Notes under the pieces: model-generated
The model's database searches: none
Told to the model about the DNA's origin: nothing
The model's input: the letters and a program-made list of their open reading frames with translations, nothing else
From: a virus
Lineage: Duplodnaviria > Heunggongvirae > Uroviricota > Caudoviricetes
DNA length: 11,126 nt
Reading direction: 5' to 3' (one strand)
IMG/VR virus record: IMGVR_UViG_2617270938_000004
Position numbers and translations under genes: made by a program
Shown here: positions 1 through 11,126 of the stretch, one piece after another
Layout: every line of letters begins with the position of its first letter
How positions within the stretch are numbered: the stretch's first letter is position 1

Positions 1-1194
1 ATGATCACCGACACAAAGCTCAGGAAGGCGCTCGGCAAGAAAAGAGATGATATCGAGATTATTTCTGATTCGCACGGGCTCAACGCCAGAATCAGCCAGG
101 CCGGAAAAATATCATTTTTCTATCGGTATCGCTGGGCCGGTAAAGCGGTAAAACTCAATGTTGGTGATTATCCTGCAATGAGTATCACCCAGGCAAGAGA
201 GCGTCGCCAACAATTCAGAAACTGGTTAACTGAGGGACTGGATCCGCGAGAGCAGGTGAAGCTGGATAAGCAGACCCGACAGGAAGCGATGTCCGTTGCC
301 GAAGCGTTCAATTACTGGATTGAAAGGCACTGTATCGCTAACGGGCTAGTTAAAGTCGATTACTATCGCCAGGTGTTTGAGAAACATATCGCCGAACCGA
401 TGAAGAATGTCAAAGTCGATAACACAGCGAAAATGCACTGGATCAACGTCTTCGATTCTATAGAAAGCAGGGTGATGGCTCATTACATGCTTTCGCTGTG
501 CAAACGGGCGTTTAGGTTCTGCGTTAACAGAAGTGTGATCGCCTCAAACCCACTCGAGGGATTACTGCCATCTGATGTCGGGCAAAAGCCTAAAAAGAGA
601 ACTCGCAGGATGGACGATGACGATCTGCGCAAAATCTATCAGTGGTTGAAAAGCCATATGTCGATAGAGTCCGTTTTCCTGGTGAAATTTATTATGCTTA
701 CCGGATGCCGTACGGCTGAGATTCGACTTAGTGAGAGATCATGGTTTCGATTGGATGATAATGAGTGGGTCGTGCCTGCGGGCAGTTATAAAACTCGGGT
801 ACATATTAGAAGGGGACTCTCAGACGCCGCCGTTAACCTGGTCAGAAATCACCTCAAGAAAATAAACACCAATCACCTGGTGACTTCACAACGTAAAATT
901 GATGGCGGGATCAAAGATTCGCCCGTTCATTCACCTGTGGCATCCAATTACGCCCGTTCTATTTGGAATGGAACAGGTATGGCAGAGTGGTCGCTTCATG
1001 ATATGAGGCGGACGATAGCCACAAATCTCTCTGAGTTAGGTTGCCCGCCGCACGTAATTGAAAAGCTGCTCGGGCATCAGATGGTGGGGGTTATGGCGCA
1101 TTACAACCTTCATGACTATATCGATGATCAGAAACACTGGCTCCGCGTTTGGCAGAGCCATCTTGAAGAGATCATCGGAGAGCCCTTCAGTTAA
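1..1194 (+). CDS. int: Tyrosine recombinase / phage integrase, P4-type
   Basis: 397-aa ORF. N-terminus '[33 protein letters not shown]' resembles the arm-binding domain of P4-family integrases. Catalytic-domain signatures are present: 'TGCRTAEI' (Arg), 'HDMRRT' (His-x-x-Arg), 'LLGHQ...MAHYNLHDY' (His/Tyr). Stop TAA at 1192-1194. Upstream RBS and att site are outside the window. Confidence 0.9.
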
Positions 1195-1388
1195 TTTATC
1201 TTCTTTTTATCCTCCCACTCTTTGATTGACTCAGAGCGCCAGCGGTTAGGGTTGCCGGGCCAGTCAGGGGGTGGGAACGGGCATACGAAGCCCCGAGGCA
1301 TTGTGTCTGCACTTTGCCATGACCAAAGGGTTTTGCGTGAAATTTTGTAGCGACTGGTCAGGTCTGACGTTACCAAAATATCATCCAT
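1191..1388 (-). CDS. alpA: AlpA-family prophage regulator / excisionase-like HTH protein
   Basis: The ATG at 1388-1386 gives a 65-aa protein '[59 protein letters not shown]', which fits the AlpA pattern (HTH, then FP-P, then W-x-x-E-x-x-W). The ORF-track start at 1433 is a TTG with no RBS; the ATG at 1388 is preceded by a purine-rich 'AGAGAGAG'. The stop overlaps the int stop. Confidence 0.7.
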
Positions 1389-1429
1389 AGCTCTCTCTAG
1401 TTGCCCGTTCGGGCCATTCAAAATCTTTT

Positions 1430-1672
1430 TCAACCAACCTGCCCGGGCAGGGAGCGGAGACGGCGCATGCCGGTCATCGCTGTGGCCACGTAGCTCGCCT
1501 TTCGGTTCACCACCTCCACCCAGACTTTCACGCCTTCAACCTTCACCGTATAAGTCTCTTTCATCTTGCTTCGCCCATAGTCGCCATATGTTTGCAAGTG
1601 AGCTGCCAGCGCGATGTCGCATGCTTGGCGAGCTAAAGGTGATTGCTTACTTCCTCGATTGATCAGTCGCAT
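1430..1672 (-). CDS. Hypothetical small protein (80 aa) in the recombination operon
   Basis: ATG at 1672-1670 preceded by a strong Shine-Dalgarno 'AAGGAG' with a roughly 6-nt spacer (reverse complement of 1673-1684). It sits between the RecT-like and AlpA-like genes on the same strand. No family recognised by eye. Confidence 0.55.
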   Translation of the reverse strand: MRLINRGSKQSPLARQACDIALAAHLQTYGDYGRSKMKETYTVKVEGVKVWVEVVNRKASYVATAMTGMRRLRSLPGQVG

Positions 1673-1710
1673 ATAATCTCCTTGAGGGAGGGTTACCCCT
1701 CCCGGTCTCG

Positions 1711-2829
1711 TCAGGCCACGTATTCCGGTTTCATATCCGCCAGGGTGATGCTGAATTGATCGTGCAGTTCATCGCCTAAGTGACGCTTTGAAGATGCAAG
1801 CATGCGCTCGGCTTCAGCGAACCGTTCGGCTGCATGCGGCTCGTCGGGCTGGGGCAGGGATTTAATAGCCTCCTCAACCTTGTTGCGTGCATCCACTAGG
1901 TAATAACGCTTTACGGCTTTGTTTTTCAGCTCGGTGAATAGTGCGGATCCCAGCGTAGCTTTCGCCGTTTCAATGTCGGCACGCAGCGATTTGGCGCTAT
2001 CCACGTCCTGAGCAGATTCGATGCGTTCGCGGAAATCATCGGCAAGAGAGTCGACATTTACCGACGATTCCTGTGCGCTTTGCGTGGTTGTGACGGTGTC
2101 ACCTGAGATATCAGCCAGGCTAACGCGTTGCGGCGTTGGGTTGATCTCTTTTTCTGTGCGCTGTTCAATCTCATCAGGGGTGTACACACCAAGAACAACT
2201 GCAGGGCAATACAGGCGCGCCCAGTATTTGAGTGCCAGATAAGCGATCTGCTGTTTCGGGTTTGATACCCAAAGTGGAGAATTACGTGTGATTACGCTGG
2301 AGAGGAAAACAGGCTCTCCCCAGGTGATATCACTTTCACCGCGAATAACGGCACCTACCCGTACCGACAGTCCTTGTTCATCAGCACTTTCCCAACCGCG
2401 TACCATTTCTTTCTTGTCGTACGTCCCGCCACCTTTCGCAGGCTTTTTAACGGTTATCTCGCGGCTGCTGGCACATTTCGACCAGTCGCCCTCGTACTCA
2501 TAGTGAAAGCGGCCAACGATGGCGTTTGAGCTGGAGATCACCGCATTAACCAGTTGCGCTTCGTATCCCAGGACACCGTTAACCAGGTGCGTCTTTTGCG
2601 CCACGGCGTAAGGGTTCATACCCCACTGCATCGCCTGCATGATGATGGCCATGCAGTCTGCCGGATTGCCGCGGAGGTGCTCAGGCACCGTTACGGCTGC
2701 CTGTGCCATCAACCCGGCGACAGACTGAAGCTGGGTTAAAGCCTGCACGTTGAAAATGGCATTGCTGGCTGAGATCGTGTTTGGAGTCTGCTGTTCAGCG
2801 GTTACGATATTCGTGTTTTCCATCATCAT
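1711..2829 (-). CDS. RecT/Bet-family single-strand annealing protein
   Basis: 372 aa. Segments 'GNPADCMAIIMQAMQWGMNPYAVAQKTHLV' and 'LWVSNPKQQIAYLALKYWARLYCPAVVLGVYTPDEIE' parallel lambda Bet as I remember it ('...FIALLIVANQYGLNPWTKEIYAF...', '...PWQSHPKRMLRHKAMIQCARLAFGFAGIYDKDEAE'). RBS 'AAGGGGA' lies directly upstream of the ATG triplet at 2829-2821, and the upstream gene's stop is only 5 nt away. Confidence 0.8.
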   Translation of the reverse strand: MMMENTNIVTAEQQTPNTISASNAIFNVQALTQLQSVAGLMAQAAVTVPEHLRGNPADCMAIIMQAMQWGMNPYAVAQKTHLVNGVLGYEAQLVNAVISSSNAIVGRFHYEYEGDWSKCASSREITVKKPAKGGGTYDKKEMVRGWESADEQGLSVRVGAVIRGESDITWGEPVFLSSVITRNSPLWVSNPKQQIAYLALKYWARLYCPAVVLGVYTPDEIEQRTEKEINPTPQRVSLADISGDTVTTTQSAQESSVNVDSLADDFRERIESAQDVDSAKSLRADIETAKATLGSALFTELKNKAVKRYYLVDARNKVEEAIKSLPQPDEPHAAERFAEAERMLASSKRHLGDELHDQFSITLADMKPEYVA

Positions 2830-2834
2830 TCCCC

Positions 2835-3704
2835 TTATGCCTGAGTACGCAGCGCTTCAAGGCGGCGCAGGTCGAAGTCGTTCAGTTCGTCGGTGTAGTC
2901 AGCAGTGATTGGCGCTGGCCATTCACCTGTGTCGAATCCGGTTGCGATATTGCGCATCGCTTTGCGGTACTCGAGCATACCCAGCTCCAGTAGTTCAGCG
3001 GATGCCTCGATGATGGCGATCCAGTGGTAGTTCTCGTCTTTGTTGACGAAAATCCAGAAGAACTGATCCAGCGCTGCGGTTTCGCAGTACATAGCCGCGC
3101 TCAGGTGATAATCACGTTCAATAATTTCCCGGTGTAGCCTGGCGCGCAGGCTTTCCTGCTTAACATTCCACATGCTGATGGTTTTCAGGTCAGCACCGAT
3201 ACGCACGCCGTCTAGGTCGATCTCAAGGTCAGGGCGCACACGAACTTCCAGTCCCGTCTCCTCGTCAAAGCCAAAGTAGCTCACCTCAACGGCGCGGCTC
3301 GGGTGGGTTAGCAGCATGCCTGCGGTCGGGTGCGAGAGCAGTGCTGACTGAATTGCCTGCGCGGTGGCAAGTTGCTGGTGGGTAACCAGCACTTTCCCTT
3401 CCGGGTTGTTGCGCCACGCATCGAGCAGCTCGTCGGCGAACACTGCATCTGGTTTGACTGCCTTCACGGCCTGAATCAGATCGGCCTTCGTGCCAGAGAC
3501 TTTCAGCGGTTGCAGCTTCTGAGCTTCCTGCGCGACCAGGTCAGGATTGATAATCGCAAGTTGTTCGAGTAGTGCGTCGCGGCTGCCGCTGGTTTTAATC
3601 TGCGCTGGCAGGGTGGCGTTGTACTCTTTGATGCACGCCTTCATTGCTGTTGCTGTCTTCTTCTGATCTGCATCGATACGTTGGAATTCAGCTGGCAGCG
3701 CCAT
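2835..3704 (-). CDS. PD-(D/E)XK-superfamily exonuclease (RecE/YqaJ-like partner of the annealing protein)
   Basis: Motif 'VEVSYFGFDEETGLEVRVRPDLEIDLDGVRIGADLKTIS' fits the E...PD...(D/E)xK nuclease core. The gene is immediately upstream of, and co-oriented with, the RecT-like gene. Start placed at the ATG at 3704-3702 ('MALPAEFQ...'); the ORF track extends to a GTG at 3764, which would overlap the divergent GP46-like gene. Confidence 0.7.
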   Translation of the reverse strand: MALPAEFQRIDADQKKTATAMKACIKEYNATLPAQIKTSGSRDALLEQLAIINPDLVAQEAQKLQPLKVSGTKADLIQAVKAVKPDAVFADELLDAWRNNPEGKVLVTHQQLATAQAIQSALLSHPTAGMLLTHPSRAVEVSYFGFDEETGLEVRVRPDLEIDLDGVRIGADLKTISMWNVKQESLRARLHREIIERDYHLSAAMYCETAALDQFFWIFVNKDENYHWIAIIEASAELLELGMLEYRKAMRNIATGFDTGEWPAPITADYTDELNDFDLRRLEALRTQA

Positions 3705-3709
3705 ATAGT
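3681..3709 (+). promoter_or_regulatory. Candidate sigma70-like promoter (TTGGAA-N17-TATAGT) reading toward the baseplate genes
   Basis: 'ttggaa' at 3681-3686 and 'tatagt' at 3704-3709, separated by 17 nt, about 50 nt upstream of the ATG at 3759. Pattern match only. Confidence 0.2.
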
Positions 3710-3758
3710 TCTGCGCCGTTTCATCCAGGCTAACGGCGTACTGACATCTGAGAATGAT

Positions 3759-4121
3759 ATGCACACGGCCATAATTATCAGTTTGTTTACTGACGGACTG
3801 GCGCGCGCTGATGATGATTATGAAGGAACTGACCGCCGCGGCTGGTGGGGGGATCTGGACAACGACCGGAATATTGGCTCAAGGCTGTGGCTACTGCGGC
3901 GTGAAAAACTGACGCGCGAAGTGGCGATGAGAGCTGAAGATTATGCCGAAGAGGCTCTGGCCTGGATGAAGTCGGATGGTATTGCAGCAGCGATAGAGGC
4001 TCAGTCAGAGATTGTTTTCCCGAATAGGCTGAACCTCATCATCCGGTATTTGCCGCCGGCGGGGGACTGGCAGGAGTTCAAATTCTTCTGGCTATGGGAG
4101 CAACTGAATAATGCCATTTAA
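3759..4121 (+). CDS. Phage GP46-family baseplate protein (Mu gp46-like)
   Basis: 'AIIISLFTDGLARADDDYEGTDRRGWWGDLDNDRNIGSRLWLLRREKLT' matches the GP46 family signature (SLFTD...RRGWWGD...GSRLWLL). First ATG in frame is at 3759; the ORF-track start at 3681 is a TTG. The N-terminus may be shortened relative to family members. Confidence 0.7.
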   Translation: MHTAIIISLFTDGLARADDDYEGTDRRGWWGDLDNDRNIGSRLWLLRREKLTREVAMRAEDYAEEALAWMKSDGIAAAIEAQSEIVFPNRLNLIIRYLPPAGDWQEFKFFWLWEQLNNAI

Positions 4122-5259
4122 GCGGAAAACACTGAGCGAGCTCCGGCAGGAGAATCGCCAGTTTATGCAGGCAGAGCTTGAAAGTGTTGGCGCGCTGTTA
4201 CGGTTTGGCAACCTTAAGGTGCTCGCTGATATGGATGCGGGCATGGCCCATCTGCACTACGCCTACCTGGATTATATTGCCCGTCAGAGCACGCCTTTCA
4301 CCTCTACCGATGAGTGGCTTGCCGGATGGATGGCGCTAAAGCAGATTTACCGAAAAGCCGCAACGGCAGCACGCTCTCCGGCGGCGACCGTTACCGGAAC
4401 GCCGGGGAAAACACTGTCAAAAGGGGCGGTGTTAAACCGTGATGATGGTTACCAGTACACAACCGATGATGCCATAACGATAAACACTGCTGGCAGTGCG
4501 TCGGTTGCTGTAACAGCGGTTTTGCCGGATATCACAGACGATGTGACAGGAGGAGGCACTTCCGGAAATGCCGATGCTGGCACCATTCTTACACTGGATG
4601 CTAATGCCCCCGGCATAGACAGCTCGGTTACGCTGATTGAGCCCGCCACCGGCGGCGCCAACATTGAAAGTGAAGAGGATTTCCGATTACGTGGTCTGCT
4701 GGCGTATCAGAATCCCCCGCAGGGCGGGAGTGACACTGATTATAAAAGCTGGGCTTTATCCGTGTCGGGGATCACCAGGGCATGGATACGGCGCCGGGGG
4801 ATGGGGCCGGGTACCGTGGTGATTTACATCATGTGCGACGGCGATGATAAAACCAATCATGGATTCCCTGCAGGAACTGACGGTGTCTCTCAACTGGAAG
4901 AGTGGGGGGCTGTAAAAGCCACCGGGGATCAGGGGAGAGTTGCCGATTATATGTATCCGCTTGCGCCGGTTACCTCCCTTAACTATGTCTGCTCTCCCAT
5001 CGAACGCGTTATCGATTTTGAAATAAGCGGGATATCTGATGCCGACAGCGCAACGACTGCGGCCATTGCTGATGCGATTGACGGGGTATTGTTTGAATCT
5101 GCTAACCCGCTCGGCACAGGGAAAATTTACCTTTCAGATCTCAACCGTGCGATAGGGGATGTTGCCGGTACTTCAGGTTATATCCTTGTGTCGCCTTCTG
5201 CGAATATTGAGCCGGGAGTTGGGGAGCTGGCTGTTCGTGGTGAGGTGAACTACACATGA
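4111..5259 (+). CDS. Baseplate J-like protein (Mu gp47 / e14 JayE-like)
   Basis: 382-aa ORF whose start overlaps the GP46-like gene by 11 nt. Order GP46-J-DUF2313 is as in Mu-like and e14-like tail modules. Judged Baseplate_J-like by overall similarity; HMM confirmation needed. Confidence 0.8.
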   Translation: MPFKRKTLSELRQENRQFMQAELESVGALLRFGNLKVLADMDAGMAHLHYAYLDYIARQSTPFTSTDEWLAGWMALKQIYRKAATAARSPAATVTGTPGKTLSKGAVLNRDDGYQYTTDDAITINTAGSASVAVTAVLPDITDDVTGGGTSGNADAGTILTLDANAPGIDSSVTLIEPATGGANIESEEDFRLRGLLAYQNPPQGGSDTDYKSWALSVSGITRAWIRRRGMGPGTVVIYIMCDGDDKTNHGFPAGTDGVSQLEEWGAVKATGDQGRVADYMYPLAPVTSLNYVCSPIERVIDFEISGISDADSATTAAIADAIDGVLFESANPLGTGKIYLSDLNRAIGDVAGTSGYILVSPSANIEPGVGELAVRGEVNYT

Positions 5260-5930
5260 GCCTTTTCTCAACAGACGATTATCAGAAGGCACTGCAGGCG
5301 CTTATCCCCACCGGCCGAGCGTGGACACGGGATCCAAAAGCTGTTCAGGCCGCTGTACTGCGGGCCATTGCGGCCAGTTTCCAGCGAAGTGATAACGACG
5401 CACTTGCATTGCTGCGCGGTGCCTTTCCAAAAACTGCGACGATTATGCTCACCGAGTGGGAAAAAACACTCGGCTTACCTGATGATTGCTCAATTGGCGA
5501 AGTGGATACGATTGCGAAGCGTCAGTCTGCCATTGTATCGAAACTCATCAGCACCGGCGGGCAGTCAAAGAGCTATTTCATCAGTATTGCCGCAGCAATG
5601 GGTTATACGATTTCGATTAAGGAATACCGGCAGGCGCGTGCTGGCTTATCGGTATGTGGTGACGGGCTAAATGGGGATGACTGGCCATTTGTCTGGCTGG
5701 TAGAGGCAGAAGACACAACGATAACTTATGCCCGTGCAGGTCTGAGTTATTGCGGCGATCCATTACGCTCCTGGGGTAATCGCCAGCTTGAGTGCCGGAT
5801 AAATGCCCTTGCCCCCTCATACACCCTGGTGAAATTTGGCTATATCTATTTCGGTTTTAACGATGAGGGGGTTTACGAAGTCACGCCTGAGTTTGCCAGA
5901 ATATTTGATATCGCTTCCGGTTACGTTTAA
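5256..5930 (+). CDS. Phage tail protein, YmfQ/DUF2313 family (Mu gp48-like)
   Basis: 224 aa with an ATGA start/stop overlap with the upstream J-like gene (ATG 5256-5258, TGA 5257-5259). N-terminus 'MSLFSTDDYQKALQALIPTGRAWTRDP' resembles the YmfQ family. It lies directly upstream of a tail fibre gene. Confidence 0.8.
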   Translation: MSLFSTDDYQKALQALIPTGRAWTRDPKAVQAAVLRAIAASFQRSDNDALALLRGAFPKTATIMLTEWEKTLGLPDDCSIGEVDTIAKRQSAIVSKLISTGGQSKSYFISIAAAMGYTISIKEYRQARAGLSVCGDGLNGDDWPFVWLVEAEDTTITYARAGLSYCGDPLRSWGNRQLECRINALAPSYTLVKFGYIYFGFNDEGVYEVTPEFARIFDIASGYV

Positions 5931-5956
5931 TTCAGACATTTAAAAAGAAGGTTTAT

Positions 5957-6742
5957 ATGAGAAAAGTTGGCAGTACAACTGACACCGCTGATGCTAATGG
6001 TGAATACACTAATGGTAATGTCGCTAATGGTATTTCACCGACAATAATTAATGCTGAGATGATGAATACCTTTCAGCGTGAGCTGGTAAACGTTGTTGAG
6101 GGCGCGGGGCTTGAGCTTGATCCTGATGATGATTCACAGGTTCTTAAAGCGATTGGTGGCGGTCGCCTGCTTAATATTGTCACCTTTACTAAGTCAGGGA
6201 CTTACACTCCAACTAAAGGGACGAAAAGAGTGCGGGTGAAAGTTTGGGGAGCGGGGGGAGGTGGCCAGAATGCTCCAGTTAGTGTGGGCGCATCTGGAGG
6301 TTGTGCTGGTGGATTTTCGGAAGGGTTATTTAATATTTCTGATAACGAAACTATATCTGTGACGATAGGTACTGGTGGCAGTGCTGTTGCTGCTGGTGTC
6401 TCGTCTAAAGGCGGGAATGGTGGTGATACAAGGTTCGGGAGTTTAATCTCAGCTACTGGAGGGAGTGGTGGCGGGGCTACAGTTCCTGCTGGAGGTATCG
6501 GAAGTGGCGGGAACATTTTAAATATTACTGGCGGAATATCTCAAGGTGGTCTGTATTATGGTTCTGATGCTTTTATTGGCGGGGCTGGGGGATCTGCATT
6601 TTCATCAACGGGTGGCAATGGCCACTTCGGTAGTTCTGGCGATGATGGCGGTTTCCCCGGCTCAGGTGGTGCCGGGGGGAATGGTAACTATTCATCAGGA
6701 AAAGGAGCGAATGGTTTAGTTTACCTTGAAGAGTTTTCCTGA
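5957..6742 (+). CDS. Tail fibre protein with conserved N-terminal fibre domain and glycine-rich C-terminal region
   Basis: 261 aa. RBS 'GAAGG' 5 nt before the ATG. N-terminus 'GISPTIINAEMMNTFQRELVNVVEGAGLELDPDDDSQVLKAIGG' matches the conserved tail-fibre N-terminal motif seen in P2/Mu/e14-type fibres. C-terminal 170 aa is Gly-rich ('VKVWGAGGGGQN...GGSGGGATVPAGGIGSGGN...'). Codon usage is AT-rich relative to the upstream baseplate genes. Confidence 0.75.
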   Translation: MRKVGSTTDTADANGEYTNGNVANGISPTIINAEMMNTFQRELVNVVEGAGLELDPDDDSQVLKAIGGGRLLNIVTFTKSGTYTPTKGTKRVRVKVWGAGGGGQNAPVSVGASGGCAGGFSEGLFNISDNETISVTIGTGGSAVAAGVSSKGGNGGDTRFGSLISATGGSGGGATVPAGGIGSGGNILNITGGISQGGLYYGSDAFIGGAGGSAFSSTGGNGHFGSSGDDGGFPGSGGAGGNGNYSSGKGANGLVYLEEFS

Positions 6743-7812
6743 TTATTTTTGCTTTGAGCGTCCGCCCTTATTTTTGCTCTAATTTTAATTAGTGGCTTTT
6801 CTATTAATATTACACAAACGATCCCAAGTGCAATTGATATTGGGTAGCCTAATAAAAAGATGGATAAGCCACGATTTTCACCACCAATAGCAAGCCATGC
6901 TAGAAATCCACCAAAATATTGACAAAGAAAAATTGGATAGGCCAGGTCACCAAACCACTTGAGTATTTTCTCAAGATGTATGTTTGTCTTTATTTTTAAT
7001 AATACCAGGGTTGTAAACAATGCTATTACATTATTGGTGTAGTAAAGTATTATGTTGTACTGACCTAATGCATTAATTGTATATAAATGCCAATTGGTAA
7101 TAAAAATCCCGATGCAAATAAATGTTATTAAAAAAGCTTTGTGTGGAGAAAGATACATAGCTTTGAACTTTCTATGGGCAAAATAACCCAGAGAACCCAT
7201 GCTAAAAGGAAGTGTTGCAGCAAGGAATGGGAAATACGCCATATCAAAAGAATGGTGTACTACATATACGTAAGCATGATAAAGCAGTGAAAGCAGAATC
7301 GACGTAATGGCTGTAAATTTATTTCGGGCTATGAAAAGCCACAATAAAAAATAACATGTTATCTCAACACCCACTGACCATGATGATGTGACTATTCTGA
7401 ATCTATTACCATCAATAGCAAAGTGATAAATGGATGAAAAGGCACCGAATGGATTTGCTACAGCATTATCAGAAAGGAAAGCCCAGGGGAAGATTAAGAG
7501 GTTTCCTAATAAATCTCCAGGTAAGAAATTGCCTGTCCAGTTTGAGTGGAATTCCTTTGCGGATGGAATTAATTTTATAATAAGAAAGCCCATGACGAGA
7601 AAAAATATATATGCCGGGAATAACCTCAGCATTCTATTTTTCCAAAACATAGAGAAGTTGAACTTGTATGTTTCATGCAAAATGTATGTTATTAAAAAAC
7701 CACTAATAACATAGAAGCAATTCACTGCAAAGTTGCCAAGTGCAGGTATGCGAGCCGTTAAGTGAAAAGCAATGACGCACGATGCCAAAAAAAACCTTAT
7801 TAGGCCAAGCAT
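6721..7812 (-). CDS. Acyltransferase family 3 integral membrane protein (O-antigen / polysaccharide O-acetyltransferase-like, Oac/OafA-type)
   Basis: 363 aa and highly hydrophobic. Family hallmarks: 'FHLTARIPALGNFAVNCFYVISGFLITY' and 'FWKNRMLRLFPAYIFF', comparable to the 'G-x-x-GVD-x-FFV-x-SGFLIT' and 'R-x-x-R-I-x-PxY' motifs. The 3' end overlaps the convergent tail fibre gene by 22 bp. Confidence 0.85.
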   Translation of the reverse strand: MLGLIRFFLASCVIAFHLTARIPALGNFAVNCFYVISGFLITYILHETYKFNFSMFWKNRMLRLFPAYIFFLVMGFLIIKLIPSAKEFHSNWTGNFLPGDLLGNLLIFPWAFLSDNAVANPFGAFSSIYHFAIDGNRFRIVTSSWSVGVEITCYFLLWLFIARNKFTAITSILLSLLYHAYVYVVHHSFDMAYFPFLAATLPFSMGSLGYFAHRKFKAMYLSPHKAFLITFICIGIFITNWHLYTINALGQYNIILYYTNNVIALFTTLVLLKIKTNIHLEKILKWFGDLAYPIFLCQYFGGFLAWLAIGGENRGLSIFLLGYPISIALGIVCVILIEKPLIKIRAKIRADAQSKNNQENSSR

Positions 7813-8075: not shown

Positions 8076-8107
8076 TCTCTTATTTAACCGTTTAAACACG
8101 TAAGGCG

Positions 8108-8136
8108 ATGTTAGCCCTGAAGGGGCGGGGCGTCAA
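8108..8136 (-). promoter_or_regulatory. Candidate sigma70-like promoter (TTGACG-N17-TAACAT on the minus strand) for the HTH-acyltransferase operon
   Basis: Reverse complement of 8131-8136 is 'TTGACG' and of 8108-8113 is 'TAACAT', with a 17-nt spacer, about 33 nt upstream of the ATG at 8075. Pattern match only. Confidence 0.2.
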
Positions 8137-8176
8137 TCTTAATTGCTTCATTGAAAAGATGAAGACAGGAACAGGT

Positions 8177-10360
8177 ATGGACAAAAGATATAATACCGGC
8201 AATCCAAGACCTTCAAATAGCATGAAGGATCTGAATGATAACGCCCTGGCGTACGATGATTTCCTGAACAGCGAAAGAGATACTTTTATAGATCGTTTTG
8301 GTAACGCCCAGGATACGATAATTGGGGCTACTAAAAAAATGGCAGCTGCTACCGACGCTGTTATTGATGAAGCCCGCCAAAACCTGATCCCTCTGAGCAA
8401 GCAATACATGACGCTTGCTGATGCACAGGCAGATATTGCTAATATCCCCGAGGGGAGCACTACTTATTATCGCAGCCCGGATGACAGCGCCCTCGCGATC
8501 GAGGTCATGAACGTTGGCGGAACGTTGCAGCCAACCGGTCGCAGGATGATTTCTGCTGGATATGTTGACGCGCTGAGAGATTTGGTTGCCACTGAACTGG
8601 CGAAAATTATGGCTTTCGGTGCTGCTCAGACTACCGATGCATACCCAGATATTGCTGAGCTCATTCTTGATAGTGTAGGGCATGCCGTTTATCGCCGTTA
8701 TACCGATGGCACGAGCCAGTTTCCGGCATTGATGATTGGTTCAGGGATTGAGCTTGTGCAAATTGCAGGTGGAGGATTTGTCTGCCAGATGCGCGCCACT
8801 GGTGAAGAAATATTTAACATTTCTGCCCTTGGCAATCTGACACATGGCAGCCTGACCACGTGGTTTGCTGATGATGACAGTGTCAGTGACTATTCTGAAA
8901 TACATATGGACGGACAGGGGAGAATTTTTCGGCGAGTTCGCACAGATGGTACCGTGGAGCAGCTGGGCGATGACACACCTGATGATGACGCCTCTGAATT
9001 CCCAATGGTTGCTTCAGTTGATGGAAATATCATTGCGGTAGATGGCAGCGATGTAACTCAGATCACGAACGACTCCGGAGTTTCAAATATTGCGCCAGTG
9101 GCATATGCGGAATTTTTGCGTTATTTGTCGAATGTCAGCGGCAACTACATCACTTATCGATCCACTTATGACGGGAATTACCGGGCGCGAGAGTCATTGC
9201 GCTTTCTTATTCACCTGATTATAACTGGTCAGTCTCTTGCTGCAGGCGGTTCAACGCAAGCACAAAGCCCTGTAACGACAACAGCGCAGGCAGATTACGG
9301 CATACTCTCGTTTGAGACCGGCCCGAAAGTCGATTTTAAGTATGACACGCTGAATGAATCGCTCCTTGAGGCTGTCATCCCATGCCGGGAGAATGCTGGG
9401 ACGCGGCCTGGACAGGAGTCGCCATCAAGCGGTATGGCGTTTAAAATTCATGATCTCACCGGGCATACGGTTCTGGTTTCCGATGCGTGCTCATCCGGTA
9501 CTGCAATCGCAGACATTTCATCCGGTTCAGCGACTTTTACTGGTGCAACGAAAATGATTCAGTCAGCTGTAGCCATGGCTGAAAAGTTGGGTATGCAGTA
9601 TGTTCCCGTAATGGTGCTTATCCACGGCAACCAGAATGCAGCAGCAGGCACATCTATATCCAGTTATCGCGCCGCAATGGAGACTCTCCGTGCTCAGTAT
9701 GAGTCTGTCATTAACGCGGCAACAGGAAAAAGCCAGTCGCTTCACATGTTTGTAGGCCAGTTATCTAATACCATTCCATACGGCGGAACTGCCGGTTCGA
9801 CCAAAACTAATAACATCGGTATCGCACAATATCAGGAAGCCCGTGATAACGCATTAATCCATCTTGCCAGCGCACAGTATGCCCGCCCGTATTCAGACGG
9901 TGAGCATCTGACCAGCGCAGGGTATCGGACAGAAGGCGAAGTTATTGGCGCGGTGGTTGGTGGGTGGCTGAATGACAATACAAAATCCGCGCTTGTGCCG
10001 ATAGAGTCTGGTGTTGTGCAGTCAGGAACCACAATCACTATACCAGTGGCGGGTTGTGTTGGTGATCTCGTGATTGACACCTCGAGGGTTACCGATCCAG
10101 GCAACTACGGCTTTGTCCTGACCGGGGCCACAATTGCTTCGGTAGCCGTTAGCGGCAGCGGATCAGCAGCAAAAATAGTTATCACCAAGACCGATTCTAC
10201 CACTGCGACGGCGATATCTTATGCAAGCCAGGGGATTGCCGGACAAAACCCCGGCCCTGTAACCGGTTCGCGCGGGTGTATCAGAGATTCCCAAACAGGG
10301 ACGTCACTATCCGGCCTGCCTCTCTATAACGACCTTTGCGTTTTCTCCATCCAGCTTTAA
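8177..10360 (+). CDS. Putative tail fibre / tailspike-like protein with SGNH-hydrolase (sialate-O-acetylesterase-like) domain
   Basis: Start placed at the ATG at 8177 (AGGA 6 nt upstream); the ORF track begins at 8108. Catalytic-type motifs: 'LIITGQSLAAGGS' (GQS at 9227-9235, the SGNH block I serine), 'VLIHGNQNAAAG' (block III-like), 'DGEHLTSAGYRTEGE' (DxxH block V; Asp 9896-9898, His 9905-9907). No N-terminal signal peptide. C-terminal 130 aa is Thr/Ser/Gly-rich and looks beta-rich. It sits in a tail-fibre locus. Confidence 0.7.
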   Translation: MDKRYNTGNPRPSNSMKDLNDNALAYDDFLNSERDTFIDRFGNAQDTIIGATKKMAAATDAVIDEARQNLIPLSKQYMTLADAQADIANIPEGSTTYYRSPDDSALAIEVMNVGGTLQPTGRRMISAGYVDALRDLVATELAKIMAFGAAQTTDAYPDIAELILDSVGHAVYRRYTDGTSQFPALMIGSGIELVQIAGGGFVCQMRATGEEIFNISALGNLTHGSLTTWFADDDSVSDYSEIHMDGQGRIFRRVRTDGTVEQLGDDTPDDDASEFPMVASVDGNIIAVDGSDVTQITNDSGVSNIAPVAYAEFLRYLSNVSGNYITYRSTYDGNYRARESLRFLIHLIITGQSLAAGGSTQAQSPVTTTAQADYGILSFETGPKVDFKYDTLNESLLEAVIPCRENAGTRPGQESPSSGMAFKIHDLTGHTVLVSDACSSGTAIADISSGSATFTGATKMIQSAVAMAEKLGMQYVPVMVLIHGNQNAAAGTSISSYRAAMETLRAQYESVINAATGKSQSLHMFVGQLSNTIPYGGTAGSTKTNNIGIAQYQEARDNALIHLASAQYARPYSDGEHLTSAGYRTEGEVIGAVVGGWLNDNTKSALVPIESGVVQSGTTITIPVAGCVGDLVIDTSRVTDPGNYGFVLTGATIASVAVSGSGSAAKIVITKTDSTTATAISYASQGIAGQNPGPVTGSRGCIRDSQTGTSLSGLPLYNDLCVFSIQL

Positions 10361-10373
10361 AGGACTGTAAATC

Positions 10374-11126
10374 ATGACTACCCGCTTTTATATTGATAAC
10401 GGTGTGACAGCCACGCGTTACCTTGACACTTACCCTTATCCAAACGACATCACCCAACTTCCGGCTTTAATACCGGGGATTATCCTGCAGGCTGATTTTG
10501 ACGTAAAAGACACTGCATCATTAACCAGAAACCGGGTTGGAGCTGCTATGTCCGTTGTTGGCTCTCCTGTTCTTGGTGATTACGGCGTCAGCCTCACTGA
10601 GGCTAACCACCTGGATACAAACATCGACATAGCAGCATATAACGGCAGCGATCTGACAATGGTGACAATAGCTGTCCATCCAGGGGTAATTGGTGCTGTT
10701 GTGGGCCGGGTGCAGATGAACGCGCCACAGCGTACTCGTGGTACACAAACTACGGCTACAGCGTGGAGAGCTAAATGGTTGACTGCAGCAGGTGCAGCAC
10801 AACAGGCCGACCTTATCCCGTCTACTGCCGCAATTGATGGCGAAATGGCAGTCAGTCGGTTTGTGCGAGACAACGGTAGCGGATCAATGCTGACTAAGCT
10901 TGATCTGCCACGCACATCACAGTCAGCAACCCGCACCGCAGCGACGACTCCTTATGCTGTACCTTCGTCAAAAATTCTGCTGGGCGGTTCTGTCGAGGGA
11001 GCCACGACTGCCACTATCTTCATGCGGGCATGCCTGATTGTATCTAGGGCAATAACGGATGTTGAAATGGCAACTATTTACACCTATTACAAAAATTATT
11101 ATCAGCTGAAAGGCAAAAACATTTAA
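10374..11126 (+). CDS. LamG-like (concanavalin A-like lectin fold) domain protein, putative carbohydrate-binding tail accessory protein
   Basis: 250 aa. RBS 'AGGA' 9 nt upstream, immediately after the esterase stop. C-terminal 'ILLGGSVEGATTATIFMRACLIVSRAITDVEMATIYTYYKNY' resembles the LamG/Laminin_G_3 terminal motif (iG....F.G.IDEvRiYnRALs..Ei..lY). Assignment by motif only. Confidence 0.5.
   Translation: MTTRFYIDNGVTATRYLDTYPYPNDITQLPALIPGIILQADFDVKDTASLTRNRVGAAMSVVGSPVLGDYGVSLTEANHLDTNIDIAAYNGSDLTMVTIAVHPGVIGAVVGRVQMNAPQRTRGTQTTATAWRAKWLTAAGAAQQADLIPSTAAIDGEMAVSRFVRDNGSGSMLTKLDLPRTSQSATRTAATTPYAVPSSKILLGGSVEGATTATIFMRACLIVSRAITDVEMATIYTYYKNYYQLKGKNI

Follow-up and report, generated by a model that had tools for sequence, protein, structure and literature searches.

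The gene at 8177-10360 of the window, by which we mean the whole 11,126-nt stretch of DNA analysed here, very probably encodes an ordinary modular receptor-binding tail fibre or spike with an SGNH esterase in its tip; the phage would be temperate and have a contractile tail of the Mu type. The features on which this reading is built are given below, where close homologues denote a set of 120 proteins from several genera that are 72-100% identical to the fibre protein, and A1 and A3 are family profiles.

3681..6742, plus strand: Mu-type baseplate genes gp46, gp47 (J) and gp48 (YmfQ), and a 261-aa Gly-rich fibre (Pfam GP46, Baseplate_J, Phage_Mu_Gp48, Gly_rich_2)
6721-7812, minus strand: Acyl_transf_3 O-acetyltransferase (Pfam), adjoining the fibre gene and divergent from it
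8076..8176, no strand: intergenic region separating the fibre gene from a small gene that points leftward, bounded by RefSeq gene ends; holds the non-start ATG at 8108
8177..10360, plus strand: complete coding sequence of the receptor-binding tail fibre or spike, 727 aa plus stop; RefSeq annotates the same coordinates
8177..8362, plus strand: head, residues 1-62, putative helical anchor like that of Sf11 gp13, with the pattern NPxPS...D...NS...DRFG...G
8363..8551, plus strand: neck, residues 63-125, RQNLIPLSKQYMTLADAQADIANIP...GGTLQPTGR, with invariant or near-invariant columns in A3
8552..8614, plus strand: predicted long helix, residues 126-146 (placed at 127-146 by the structure model)
8615..9202, plus strand: beta-rich middle region, residues 147-342, part of the variable body; pLDDT mostly <65
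9203..9985, plus strand: predicted SGNH carbohydrate O-acetylesterase core of SASA/CE20 type, residues 343-603, from family profile and structure model
9230..9235, plus strand: block I GQSLA, Gln352-Ser353, conserved in 97 of the 120 close homologues
9623..9637, plus strand: block III variant HGNQN, residues 483-487, present in 112 of the 120
9896..9907, plus strand: block V D574-G-E-H577 (DxxH); SDGEH[LM]T in all 120
9986..10357, plus strand: C-terminal beta-sandwich, residues 604-727, with motifs PGNYGF and RG.LRDS; always accompanies this esterase type
10374..11126, plus strand: partner gene, 250 aa, directly downstream and inherited together with the esterase body

Gene start and general character of the protein

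The uninterrupted open reading frame listed for the window runs from 8108 to 10360, and the original prediction had placed the true start probably at 8177 instead of 8108. Comparison with related sequences sets the start at 8177, because three sources agree on it: the RefSeq coding sequence in E. coli 20KM2222, which at 2184 nt corresponds exactly to the fibre gene (99.9% nucleotide identity), the database protein P0001, identical to the fibre protein over 727 aa, and Klebsiella orthologues with the same head, which begin at the equivalent Met. The ATG at 8177 is preceded on its 5' side by AGGAACAGGT. For a divergent promoter in the gap ahead of the fibre gene the evidence points neither way: one leftward sigma-70-like match in 8076..8176 lies at 8136-8108, and a promoter and terminator scan of this region returned no more matches than shuffled sequence.

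The fibre-like character that had been proposed for the protein is borne out by PHROG 4201, 'tail fiber protein', which matches residues 44-726 and thus nearly the full length (E 1.8e-88). A signal peptide, which had been named as an argument against a fibre role, was looked for by Kyte-Doolittle hydropathy together with a transmembrane segment, and neither was found: the maximum was 0.16 in residues 1-50 with a 10-residue window and 1.51 over the whole protein with a 19-residue window. Single-sequence searches of Pfam, NCBIfam and the PDB with the fibre protein gave nothing useful. RefSeq lists the protein, as WP_021543319.1, without functional annotation.

An Sf11 gp13-type head on a widespread constant module

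The remote-homology search and per-domain structure prediction that had been suggested as a check were run, and they recovered both an SGNH fold and a head of the Sf11 gp13 type. Profile A3 matches residues ~4-57 to chain 9occ_G of the PDB (Sf11 gp13 residues 3-56; E 3.1e-6), BLASTP of the head against gp13 gives 40% identity (E 5e-10), and Foldseek superimposes the two with probability 1.00, an rmsd of 1.5 A and 35-38% identity. By profile and model, residues ~4-57 are therefore assigned as homologous to the N-terminal docking helices of the tailspike gp13 of Shigella phage Sf11. In that phage, the gp13 trimer docks through a bundle of three such helices and a single helix from gp17, the distal tail protein (PMC12724387).

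The neck, modelled at a pLDDT of 81-90, closes the constant region and marks a recombination junction. E. coli proteins with different tips match the fibre gene only from nt 1 to ~330-366, and the tips fused to this constant module (residues 1-~120) in E. coli prophages are TolB-like, CotH-like or of another SGNH kind; the module is also widespread in Klebsiella. These results contradict the earlier suggestion that the N-terminal region could be a novel adaptor. The statement that this region has no assignable motif stands for Pfam and for single-sequence PDB searches, and falls for PHROGs and for the profile search. As had been noted, the N-terminal motif of the neighbouring fibre is missing here, the N-terminal PHROG families of that protein being absent from the fibre protein.

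Beyond the neck, the helix at residues 126-146 is probably a trimeric coiled-coil stalk as judged from the structure model, in which confidence falls along residues 127-146 from ~71 to ~45. The model of residues 1-345 is poor as a whole (pLDDT 58.5), and the BamB/beta-propeller matches that Foldseek returned for it, with a TM of ~0.12, were discarded as meaningless. A Pfam search with residues 147-342 gave no match. The homologue in phage VIK251 aligns over residues 75-727 at 57% identity, middle region included. Thus, the description of the flanks of the esterase as uncharacterised remains apt for residues ~147-342 only; the head, the neck and the C-terminal beta-sandwich can now be described.

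A predicted SASA/CE20-type esterase core followed by a beta-sandwich

An internal SGNH esterase core had been predicted, and profile A1, Pfam SASA matches in relatives and Foldseek all uphold it. Against the PDB, A1 matches the tailspike 9vyh (E 1.4e-29), 2apj (2.4e-5) and 1zmb (7.8e-3), and 22 of 31 relatives match Pfam SASA (PF03629) at E<=0.1, the best at 1.3e-10. One of the eight relatives that were rescanned exceeds the SASA cut-off, and neither the whole fibre protein nor residues 340-727 gave a Pfam match, the SASA gathering threshold not being reached. By these searches the fibre esterase is placed as a remote relative of Pfam SASA and not as a formal member. The esterase module was modelled with a pLDDT of 83.7 and a pTM of 0.87; its Foldseek matches comprise 9vyh (TM 0.77), 7kmm, 8f9q, 1zmb, 2apj, 9h4u and 9ega, as well as the polysaccharide-deacetylating ViI and Vi06 fibres and GDSL esterases; SIAE and the CE20 enzymes XAC1771, Fl8 and Pp are among them. 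The three-layer alpha/beta/alpha, flavodoxin-like fold of the model is shared with many SGNH structures at a Foldseek probability of 1.00. Profile and model together assign residues 343-603 to a SASA/CE20-type SGNH domain. The boundaries given originally, residues 365-620 counted from 8108, become 342-597 when counted from 8177 and agree with the modelled core at ~343-603.

Within the core, GQS occupies residues 351-353, with Gln352 encoded by CAG at 9230-9232 and Ser353 by TCT at 9233-9235, so that the GQS serine codon formerly assigned to 9230-9232 was off by one codon; the histidine codon at 9905-9907 was correct and specifies His577 of DGEH. Ser353 is the predicted catalytic nucleophile. 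Gln352 likely contributes to the oxyanion hole by analogy with CE20 enzymes, in which the Gln of GQSNM has this role (PMC12313940). The block II-like stretch E414-S-P-S-S-G419 is present and conserved, and His577 is invariant across the wide family alignment A1 (H238 of the fragment).

The last ~127 aa contain 12.6% each of Thr, Ser and Gly, and the earlier characterisation of the C-terminal 130 aa as Ser/Thr/Gly-rich is accurate as to composition; low complexity does not apply, since the region is a conserved, folded beta-sandwich. It is modelled mostly at a pLDDT of 92-97, is conserved to its last residues in A1, and aligns with the C-terminus of the Pan3 tailspike. Pfam SWM_repeat is matched by 7 of 31 relatives, counted per protein and at any position.

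A decayed prophage and an exchangeable body

The gene sits in a decayed E. coli prophage, which in this window has lost its head genes and the greater part of its tail genes; a gene scan showed no capsid, sheath or tube gene. The fibre gene is intact, yet it cannot build a virion in the present window because of these losses, and its virion role here is vestigial. In the prophage of 20KM2222 the 99.9%-identical fibre gene lies in the tail module, and capsid, sheath, tube and baseplate genes are retained. Klebsiella locus L010 combines the same head type with the same baseplate gene order.

Close relatives share the body and carry at least four recurrent alternative heads of ~60 aa, and four head types could be traced to a Mu-like, a siphovirus, a lambda-like and another myovirus tail. 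From sequence comparison, everything past residue ~120 is classed as exchangeable body. Homologues up to 93% identical to the fibre protein occur in K. pneumoniae prophages, and one lies among the baseplate genes of the virulent phage VIK251. Directly behind the body, the 250-aa gene follows in loci L006, L007, L010, L011 and L012; its product is 68% identical to that of the gene downstream of the VIK251 homologue and shows no relationship to the product of the gene that accompanies the TolB-type tip. It matched neither Pfam nor the PDB, even with a 21-sequence profile, and its position makes it a candidate assembly factor or accessory subunit.

Some related loci carry an invertase. In the Klebsiella prophage L011, the esterase fibre belongs to one of two convergent fibre operons beside an invertase. 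Inverted repeats of 375 nt, with hix-like sites, lie on either side of the operons, and the repeat arm ends at codon ~108; in the 20KM2222 prophage an invertase gene lies near the fibre gene. For the present prophage an invertible segment was considered and rejected, as the window and locus L001 lack paired inverted sites: neither has a second inverted fibre copy or a paired site, the window has no hix-like site, and L001 has no significant inverted repeat and hix-like matches at chance frequency.

A more far-reaching reading would combine the body with the 250-aa gene and another of ~64 aa into a portable three-gene cassette, fitted by a swap of the ~60-residue head to at least four tail architectures and to a virulent Mydovirus, phase-switched by an invertase in some prophages, with the 250-aa protein as a new kind of cognate accessory that would act either in assembly, as a chaperone, or in binding, as a distal subunit. 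We regard this as possible though rather doubtful.

Proposed function and alternative explanations

As an ordinary receptor-binding fibre, the protein would be trimeric, as assumed from other fibres, and its head helices would dock it onto the tail in the manner of Sf11 gp13; in the window, the Mu-type tail module at 3681..6742 is the remaining module on which it would dock. The putative stalk is followed by the beta-rich region, the SASA/CE20-type SGNH esterase and the C-terminal beta-sandwich. In the esterase, Ser353 would serve as nucleophile and His577 as base together with Asp574, and Gln352 and a glycine would form the oxyanion hole. The tip would bind a surface polysaccharide that bears O-acetyl groups, either capsule or O-antigen, and would strip these groups without cutting the glycan chain. 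This may let the virion move through the glycan layer or commit to it, as was demonstrated for gp63.1 of phage G7C and proposed for fibres of Klebsiella prophages. The body travels between phages in company with the 250-aa gene.

An active esterase is suggested by the tested members of the class and by the conserved catalytic residues. Activity is nevertheless not guaranteed, because block III reads HGNQN; the wider family has the consensus HGExD, with Glu after Gly in ~90% of the A1 family, and Asn485 occupies this place here. Since the fibre protein also falls below every Pfam SGNH/SASA threshold, one could imagine a catalytically dead, lectin-like module by which the glycan is recognised and not deacetylated. 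This is improbable: Ser353, Gln352, Asp574 and His577 are all present and conserved in the 72-100%-identical homologues, the histidine never varies across the wide family, activity has been shown for class members that were tested, and retention of HGNQN in 112 of 120 suggests a functional variant over decay. An active enzyme might instead address a non-glycan or cell-wall substrate, such as O-acetylated peptidoglycan or a lipid ester, and aid penetration and not recognition; the SGNH superfamily does include lipases and other esterases, and distant GDSL lipase and thioesterase matches appear in Foldseek. The closest profile and structure matches, however, are carbohydrate O-acetylesterases (SASA, CE20, SIAE) and phage tailspikes, and a tip in distal position, exchanged in the way of host-range determinants, accords with surface-glycan recognition, so that we give a cell-wall substrate hardly any credence.

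The genomic neighbourhood invites yet another explanation, in which the protein is no virion component and acts as a prophage 'moron' enzyme that edits the surface acetylation of the lysogen with the adjacent Acyl_transf_3 protein. The acyltransferase and fibre genes are adjacent and divergent, at the kch-yciI site several remnants that were truncated independently retain the acyltransferase-fibre block, and such a role would account for the survival of both genes in decayed prophages. Still, the fibre protein has neither signal peptide nor membrane segment and its N-terminus is a putative tailspike anchor. Moreover, the acyltransferase is ~98-99% conserved beside quite different tips (TolB-like, CotH-like) and thus not specifically paired with the esterase; in Klebsiella L006, L007 and L012 it is not adjacent at all, since there the fibre gene follows the upstream tail gene without any gene in between. 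On these two observations a functional pairing of acyltransferase and esterase was rejected, and the moron reading as a whole appears very unlikely. The receptor-binding fibre with a putatively deacetylating tip is the interpretation that we retain.

Comparison with known systems

Klebsiella and E. coli phages with SGNH-esterase fibres are already known from the literature, and for temperate phages such fibres were published and shown to be active (PMC13123978). Among the Klebsiella prophage fibres, two hydrolyse pNPA (164_08 and 174_38) and may belong to the cluster of the present protein or to another (Otwinowska et al., PLoS Biol 2026, PMC13123978); their sequence strings were not found in the available supplements of that paper. 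Like the K. pneumoniae prophage fibres, for which deacetylation as opposed to depolymerisation was proposed, the protein studied here would be a temperate-phage receptor-binding protein with a C-terminal SGNH module, whereas it resides in E. coli and in a defective prophage. It adds a case from E. coli to a class of temperate-phage fibres, recognised only recently, whose members remove acetyl groups from surface polysaccharides in place of depolymerising them. By itself, the fibre opens no new biological question.

The best solved relative of the entire esterase and beta-sandwich module is the tailspike of the cyanopodophage Pan3 (9vyh), to which the profile match of 1.4e-29 extends over residues 317-740 (Foldseek E 2e-18, TM 0.77), although the two share 16-17% identity and the Pan3 protein comes from a cyanobacterial podovirus and has a different N-terminal part. 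Our literature search found no paper citing 9VYH, and a term search for the Pan3 tailspike gave none describing it. With Sf11 gp13, only the head (~55 N-terminal residues) is related: gp13 is described as a P22-like, LPS-hydrolysing tailspike and not as an esterase, and Sf11 is a siphophage, whereas the fibre's own tail is of the Mu-type contractile kind.

The enzymes of the SASA/CE20 group (2apj At4g34215, 1zmb, 7kmm XAC1771, 9h4u Fl8CE20_II and 8f9q SIAE) share with the fibre the fold, the GQS of block I with Gln beside the nucleophile, and the His of block V. In contrast to them, the fibre has DxxH in block V (DxH in CE20) and HGNQN in block III, lies below Pfam detection, and carries its esterase domain within a phage fibre, joined to a characteristic beta-sandwich on the C-terminal side. 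Furthermore, gp63.1 of the E. coli phage G7C, according to the account cited in PMC13123978, is an SGNH receptor-binding protein that removes O-acetyl groups from O-antigen and is needed for infection. It belongs to another SGNH sub-family, is attached differently and serves as a functional precedent; homology was rejected, with an hhalign probability of 0.1 against A1 (E 0.73) and gp63.1 outside the top 50 Foldseek PDB matches.

Resolving the fibre into head, neck, body and partner, with the junctions placed exactly, helps to annotate 'hypothetical' prophage proteins, and heads and bodies that are visibly interchangeable at the RQNLIPLS...GGTL.PTGR junction are useful for the engineering of receptor-binding proteins. 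This arrangement is also reminiscent of the Mu G, P1 C and e14 P segments, in which a constant N-terminus likewise precedes a variable tip, with a partner gene downstream; unlike in those systems, the sites in L011 enclose whole genes and not only C-terminal parts.

Identity of the fibre gene and its prophage

Our analysis partly supports the original prediction for the gene at 8177-10360 (+), namely a virion fibre with an internal SGNH esterase core and an N-terminal region that might act as a novel adaptor: the fibre with its SGNH core is upheld, but the adaptor is not novel. The gene lies within a single uninterrupted ORF (8108-10360), with AGGAACAGGT directly 5' of the internal ATG at 8177. 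This ATG, already favoured as the start, is indeed the right one, since RefSeq gives the identical 2184-nt CDS extent in E. coli 20KM2222 (WP_021543319.1, "hypothetical protein"; 99.9% nucleotide identity to the window), a recorded protein (P0001) has the same 727-aa sequence, and the equivalent Met is the first residue of same-head Klebsiella orthologues (MTQRYNTGNP, MVNRYNTGNP). The proposed catalytic His codon at 9905-9907 is correct (His577), and the supposed GQS serine codon at 9230-9232 is CAG, encoding Gln352, with Ser353 being TCT at 9233-9235; with this one-codon correction, the original observation is confirmed. Neither a hydrophobic N-terminal segment nor a transmembrane-like stretch was found in the protein sequence.

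The window corresponds to a decayed (defective) prophage that occupies the E. coli kch-yciI/tonB site and has the following content:

1-1194, integrase, first gene in the window
After the integrase, in this order: excisionase (Xis)-like ORF, DUF4060 ORF, RecT
Next, RecE C-terminal fragment, abutting the Mu-type baseplate gene gp46 at ~3731
After gp46, gp47(J) and gp48
5957-6742 (+), 261-aa Gly-rich fibre following gp48, with a conserved fibre N-terminus and a Gly_rich_2 domain
6721-7812 (-), Acyl_transf_3 O-acetyltransferase of low GC (35%)
7812-8075/8099 (-), small gene, weakly matching HTH
8177-10360 (+), esterase fibre gene, and 10374-11126 (+), 250-aa partner gene, forming the right end

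Since the RecE fragment directly abuts gp46, the window lacks genes for capsid, sheath, tube, and tape measure (deletion junction: 1-3764 joined to 3681-5930). In E. coli 20KM2222 the same right-hand part stands behind capsid, sheath, tube, a large gene at the tape-measure position, and baseplate genes, and in other strains different, independent deletion junctions retain the right-hand block. Compared with this fuller prophage, the element in the window is therefore unable to make a virion, although its fibre gene is intact. The 261-aa neighbour could be either a short fibre itself or a platform bearing the esterase fibre.

The acetyltransferase and the small gene, placed on the opposite strand between the two fibre genes, look like a lysogenic-conversion insert. 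A role of the acyltransferase as dedicated partner of the esterase was ruled out, because it is 98-99% conserved in strains with a quite different downstream fibre tip, and because in three Klebsiella loci (L006, L007, L012) the upstream tail gene adjoins the fibre gene with no gene between.

The esterase module

Direct searches of Pfam, NCBIfam, and PDB with the fibre protein gave no match. An exhaustive search with residues 340-727 yielded 1657 representative clusters, the full 388-residue module being mostly C-terminal in proteins of widely differing length. An alignment of 31 diverse members of this family exhibits four conserved blocks (GQSL, E(T/S)PxSG, HGExD, and DGxHLT) as well as PGNYGF and RG.LRDS motifs in its C-terminal region. 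Its profile matched the tailspike of cyanopodophage Pan3 (9vyh; E 1.4e-29) across both esterase and C-terminal domain, followed by the solved SASA-family esterases 2apj (E 2.4e-5) and 1zmb (E 7.8e-3). Taken singly, 22 of the 31 members matched Pfam SASA (PF03629) and seven matched SWM_repeat; the curated Pfam cut-off was passed by one of eight members rescanned. A sequence relationship of this family to the G7C gp63.1 esterase was undetectable.

The AlphaFold2 model of residues 340-727 (pLDDT 83.7, pTM 0.87) comprises a disordered insertion (residues ~375-412) and, from ~606 to the C-terminus, a beta-sandwich of very high confidence. Foldseek against PDB again retrieved 9vyh (TM 0.77, probability 1.00) and, likewise with probability 1.00, the CE20 acetylesterases XAC1771, Fl8CE20_II, and PpCE20_II, mammalian sialate O-acetylesterase, 1zmb, 2apj, fibre proteins of Shigella phages Moo19 and B2, and classical GDSL esterases; many phage fibres, including ViI and Vi06 proteins, were matched among viral models. 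The catalytic residues hold up across the 120 closest homologues, with SDGEH[LM]T kept in all, HGNQN in 112, and GQSLA in 97; HGNQN constitutes a stable sub-family variant of the family HGExD. From profile, fold model, and motifs we conclude that residues ~343-603 are a predicted SASA/CE20-like SGNH carbohydrate O-acetylesterase, which bears out the proposed core, and that its obligatory partner domain is the beta-sandwich of residues 604-727. The flanks had been regarded as uncharacterised and the C-terminal one as Ser/Thr/Gly-rich; the latter has an assignable fold and is not a low-complexity tail. The Gln of GQSNM contributes to the oxyanion hole of CE20 enzymes (PMC12313940), an analogy that suggests a similar role for Gln352.

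Some short homologues in the family alignment, e.g. P0138, P0146, P0191, and P0244, consist of esterase and beta-sandwich alone, with hydrophobic, signal-peptide-like N-termini, and the module may also exist apart from phage fibres, as a free enzyme that is secreted.

An exchangeable anchor related to Sf11 gp13

A profile covering the N-terminal region matched residues 3-56 of the Sf11 tailspike gp13 (9occ; E 3.1e-6), pairwise BLASTP gave 40% identity (E 5e-10), and the modelled N-terminus superposed on 9occ chains with an rmsd of 1.5 A (Foldseek probability 1.00); outside this Sf11-like part the model of residues 1-345 is poor (pLDDT 58.5). This homology rules against a novel adaptor. In Sf11, three gp13 chains (residues 4-59) join a single adaptor helix supplied by gp17, the distal tail protein, in a helical bundle by which the spike is attached (PMC12724387), and the question of fibre attachment thus receives an answer based on precedent. 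However, gp13 docks on a distal tail protein, whereas the fibre in the window belongs to a Mu-type baseplate setting.

This N-terminus recurs in hundreds of proteins from Klebsiella, Raoultella, and E. coli, many of which bear the names GDSL lipase or sialate O-acetylesterase, and residues ~5-140 are common to several otherwise unlike PHROGs families. The 120 closest homologues share 72-100% identity over the body (after ~residue 120) and possess several different first ~60 residues, all joined to the body at a conserved ETRQNLIPLSRQYMTLAAAQADIANIP neck. Four recurrent head types were traced to their genomic setting:

Head types and their settings
Head A: starts (M)xxRYNTGNPRPS, as in the window; 3' of Mu-type baseplate genes, separated from these by a short fibre gene and one gene on the reverse strand; E. 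coli and K. quasipneumoniae
Head B: starts MAEVPLPTPTDN; siphovirus tip, 825-aa hub 98% identical between two loci
Head C: starts MAFNPELG; lambda-like prophage with a GpJ-type protein
Head D: starts MATTDTQQAAQF; myovirus baseplate of a different kind

Among the rarer N-termini are MADQKVKITQLP (one protein) and MADCSNYISADD. When the Sf11 head is aligned with heads A-C and the A-like variants, all have the pattern NPxPS...D...NS...DR.G...G in common, and hence seem to have diverged from a single anchor.

Beyond the fibre fold, motifs, anchor homology, and exchange pattern demonstrated here, we propose that a putatively trimeric fibre most likely docks via its N-terminal helices onto a presumed tail partner, and that the distal esterase would most likely bind and de-O-acetylate capsule or O-antigen. 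Two Klebsiella prophage SGNH fibres hydrolyse pNPA (PMC13123978), and in a 2026 preprint receptor-binding proteins of this sort, Mydovirus ones included, are classed as "capsule surface remodellers".

Tip variation and the downstream partner

In E. coli genomes, sharing is confined to the 5'-terminal ~330-366 nt of the gene (89-97% identity), and carriers at the same chromosomal locus are annotated TolB-like (beta-propeller), CotH kinase-like, or other SGNH/GDSL. The same ~120-aa N-terminus was seen at this position in loci L002 (18125-20236) and L008 (11933-14044) and in other strains. This receptor-binding locus is hypervariable, its junction being fixed at ~residue 110-122.

A Klebsiella metagenome contig (L011, 8340-16333) carries 375-nt inverted repeats (91% complementary) spanning, for the esterase fibre gene and likewise for a 1359-aa fibre gene convergent with it, the first ~108 codons and the region 5' of them. 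A hix-like dyad (TTCGCTCAAACCCTCGTTTGCGCGAA) precedes the ATG in both cases, and a Resolvase/HTH_7 gene for an invertase lies alongside; judging from this arrangement, the locus probably holds two complete fibre operons switched by an invertase. The 20KM2222 prophage (L001) is closed by an invertase-like serine recombinase of 182 aa (17535-18168, ~1.4 kb past the window end), just 5' of which lies a single degenerate hix-like sequence (CTCCCAAACCAACCTTTTTTATAA). As neither a partner hix site nor an inverted fibre copy was found in this locus, gene and site may be the remnant of a former switch.

At all traced loci of heads A-D, the body is followed by the 250-aa gene and then by a ~64-69-aa gene. 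The 250-aa ORF, which in the window terminates exactly at the edge, always follows the esterase body, in a virulent Mydovirus as well as in siphovirus, lambda-like, and myovirus prophages, and the gene after the TolB-type tip is unrelated to it. Pfam and PDB searches, profile included, gave no match for the 250-aa protein. Its family is narrow (51 clusters in Klebsiella/Raoultella/E. coli), and the window ORF shares 68% identity with the gene after the homologue in virulent Mydovirus VIK251.
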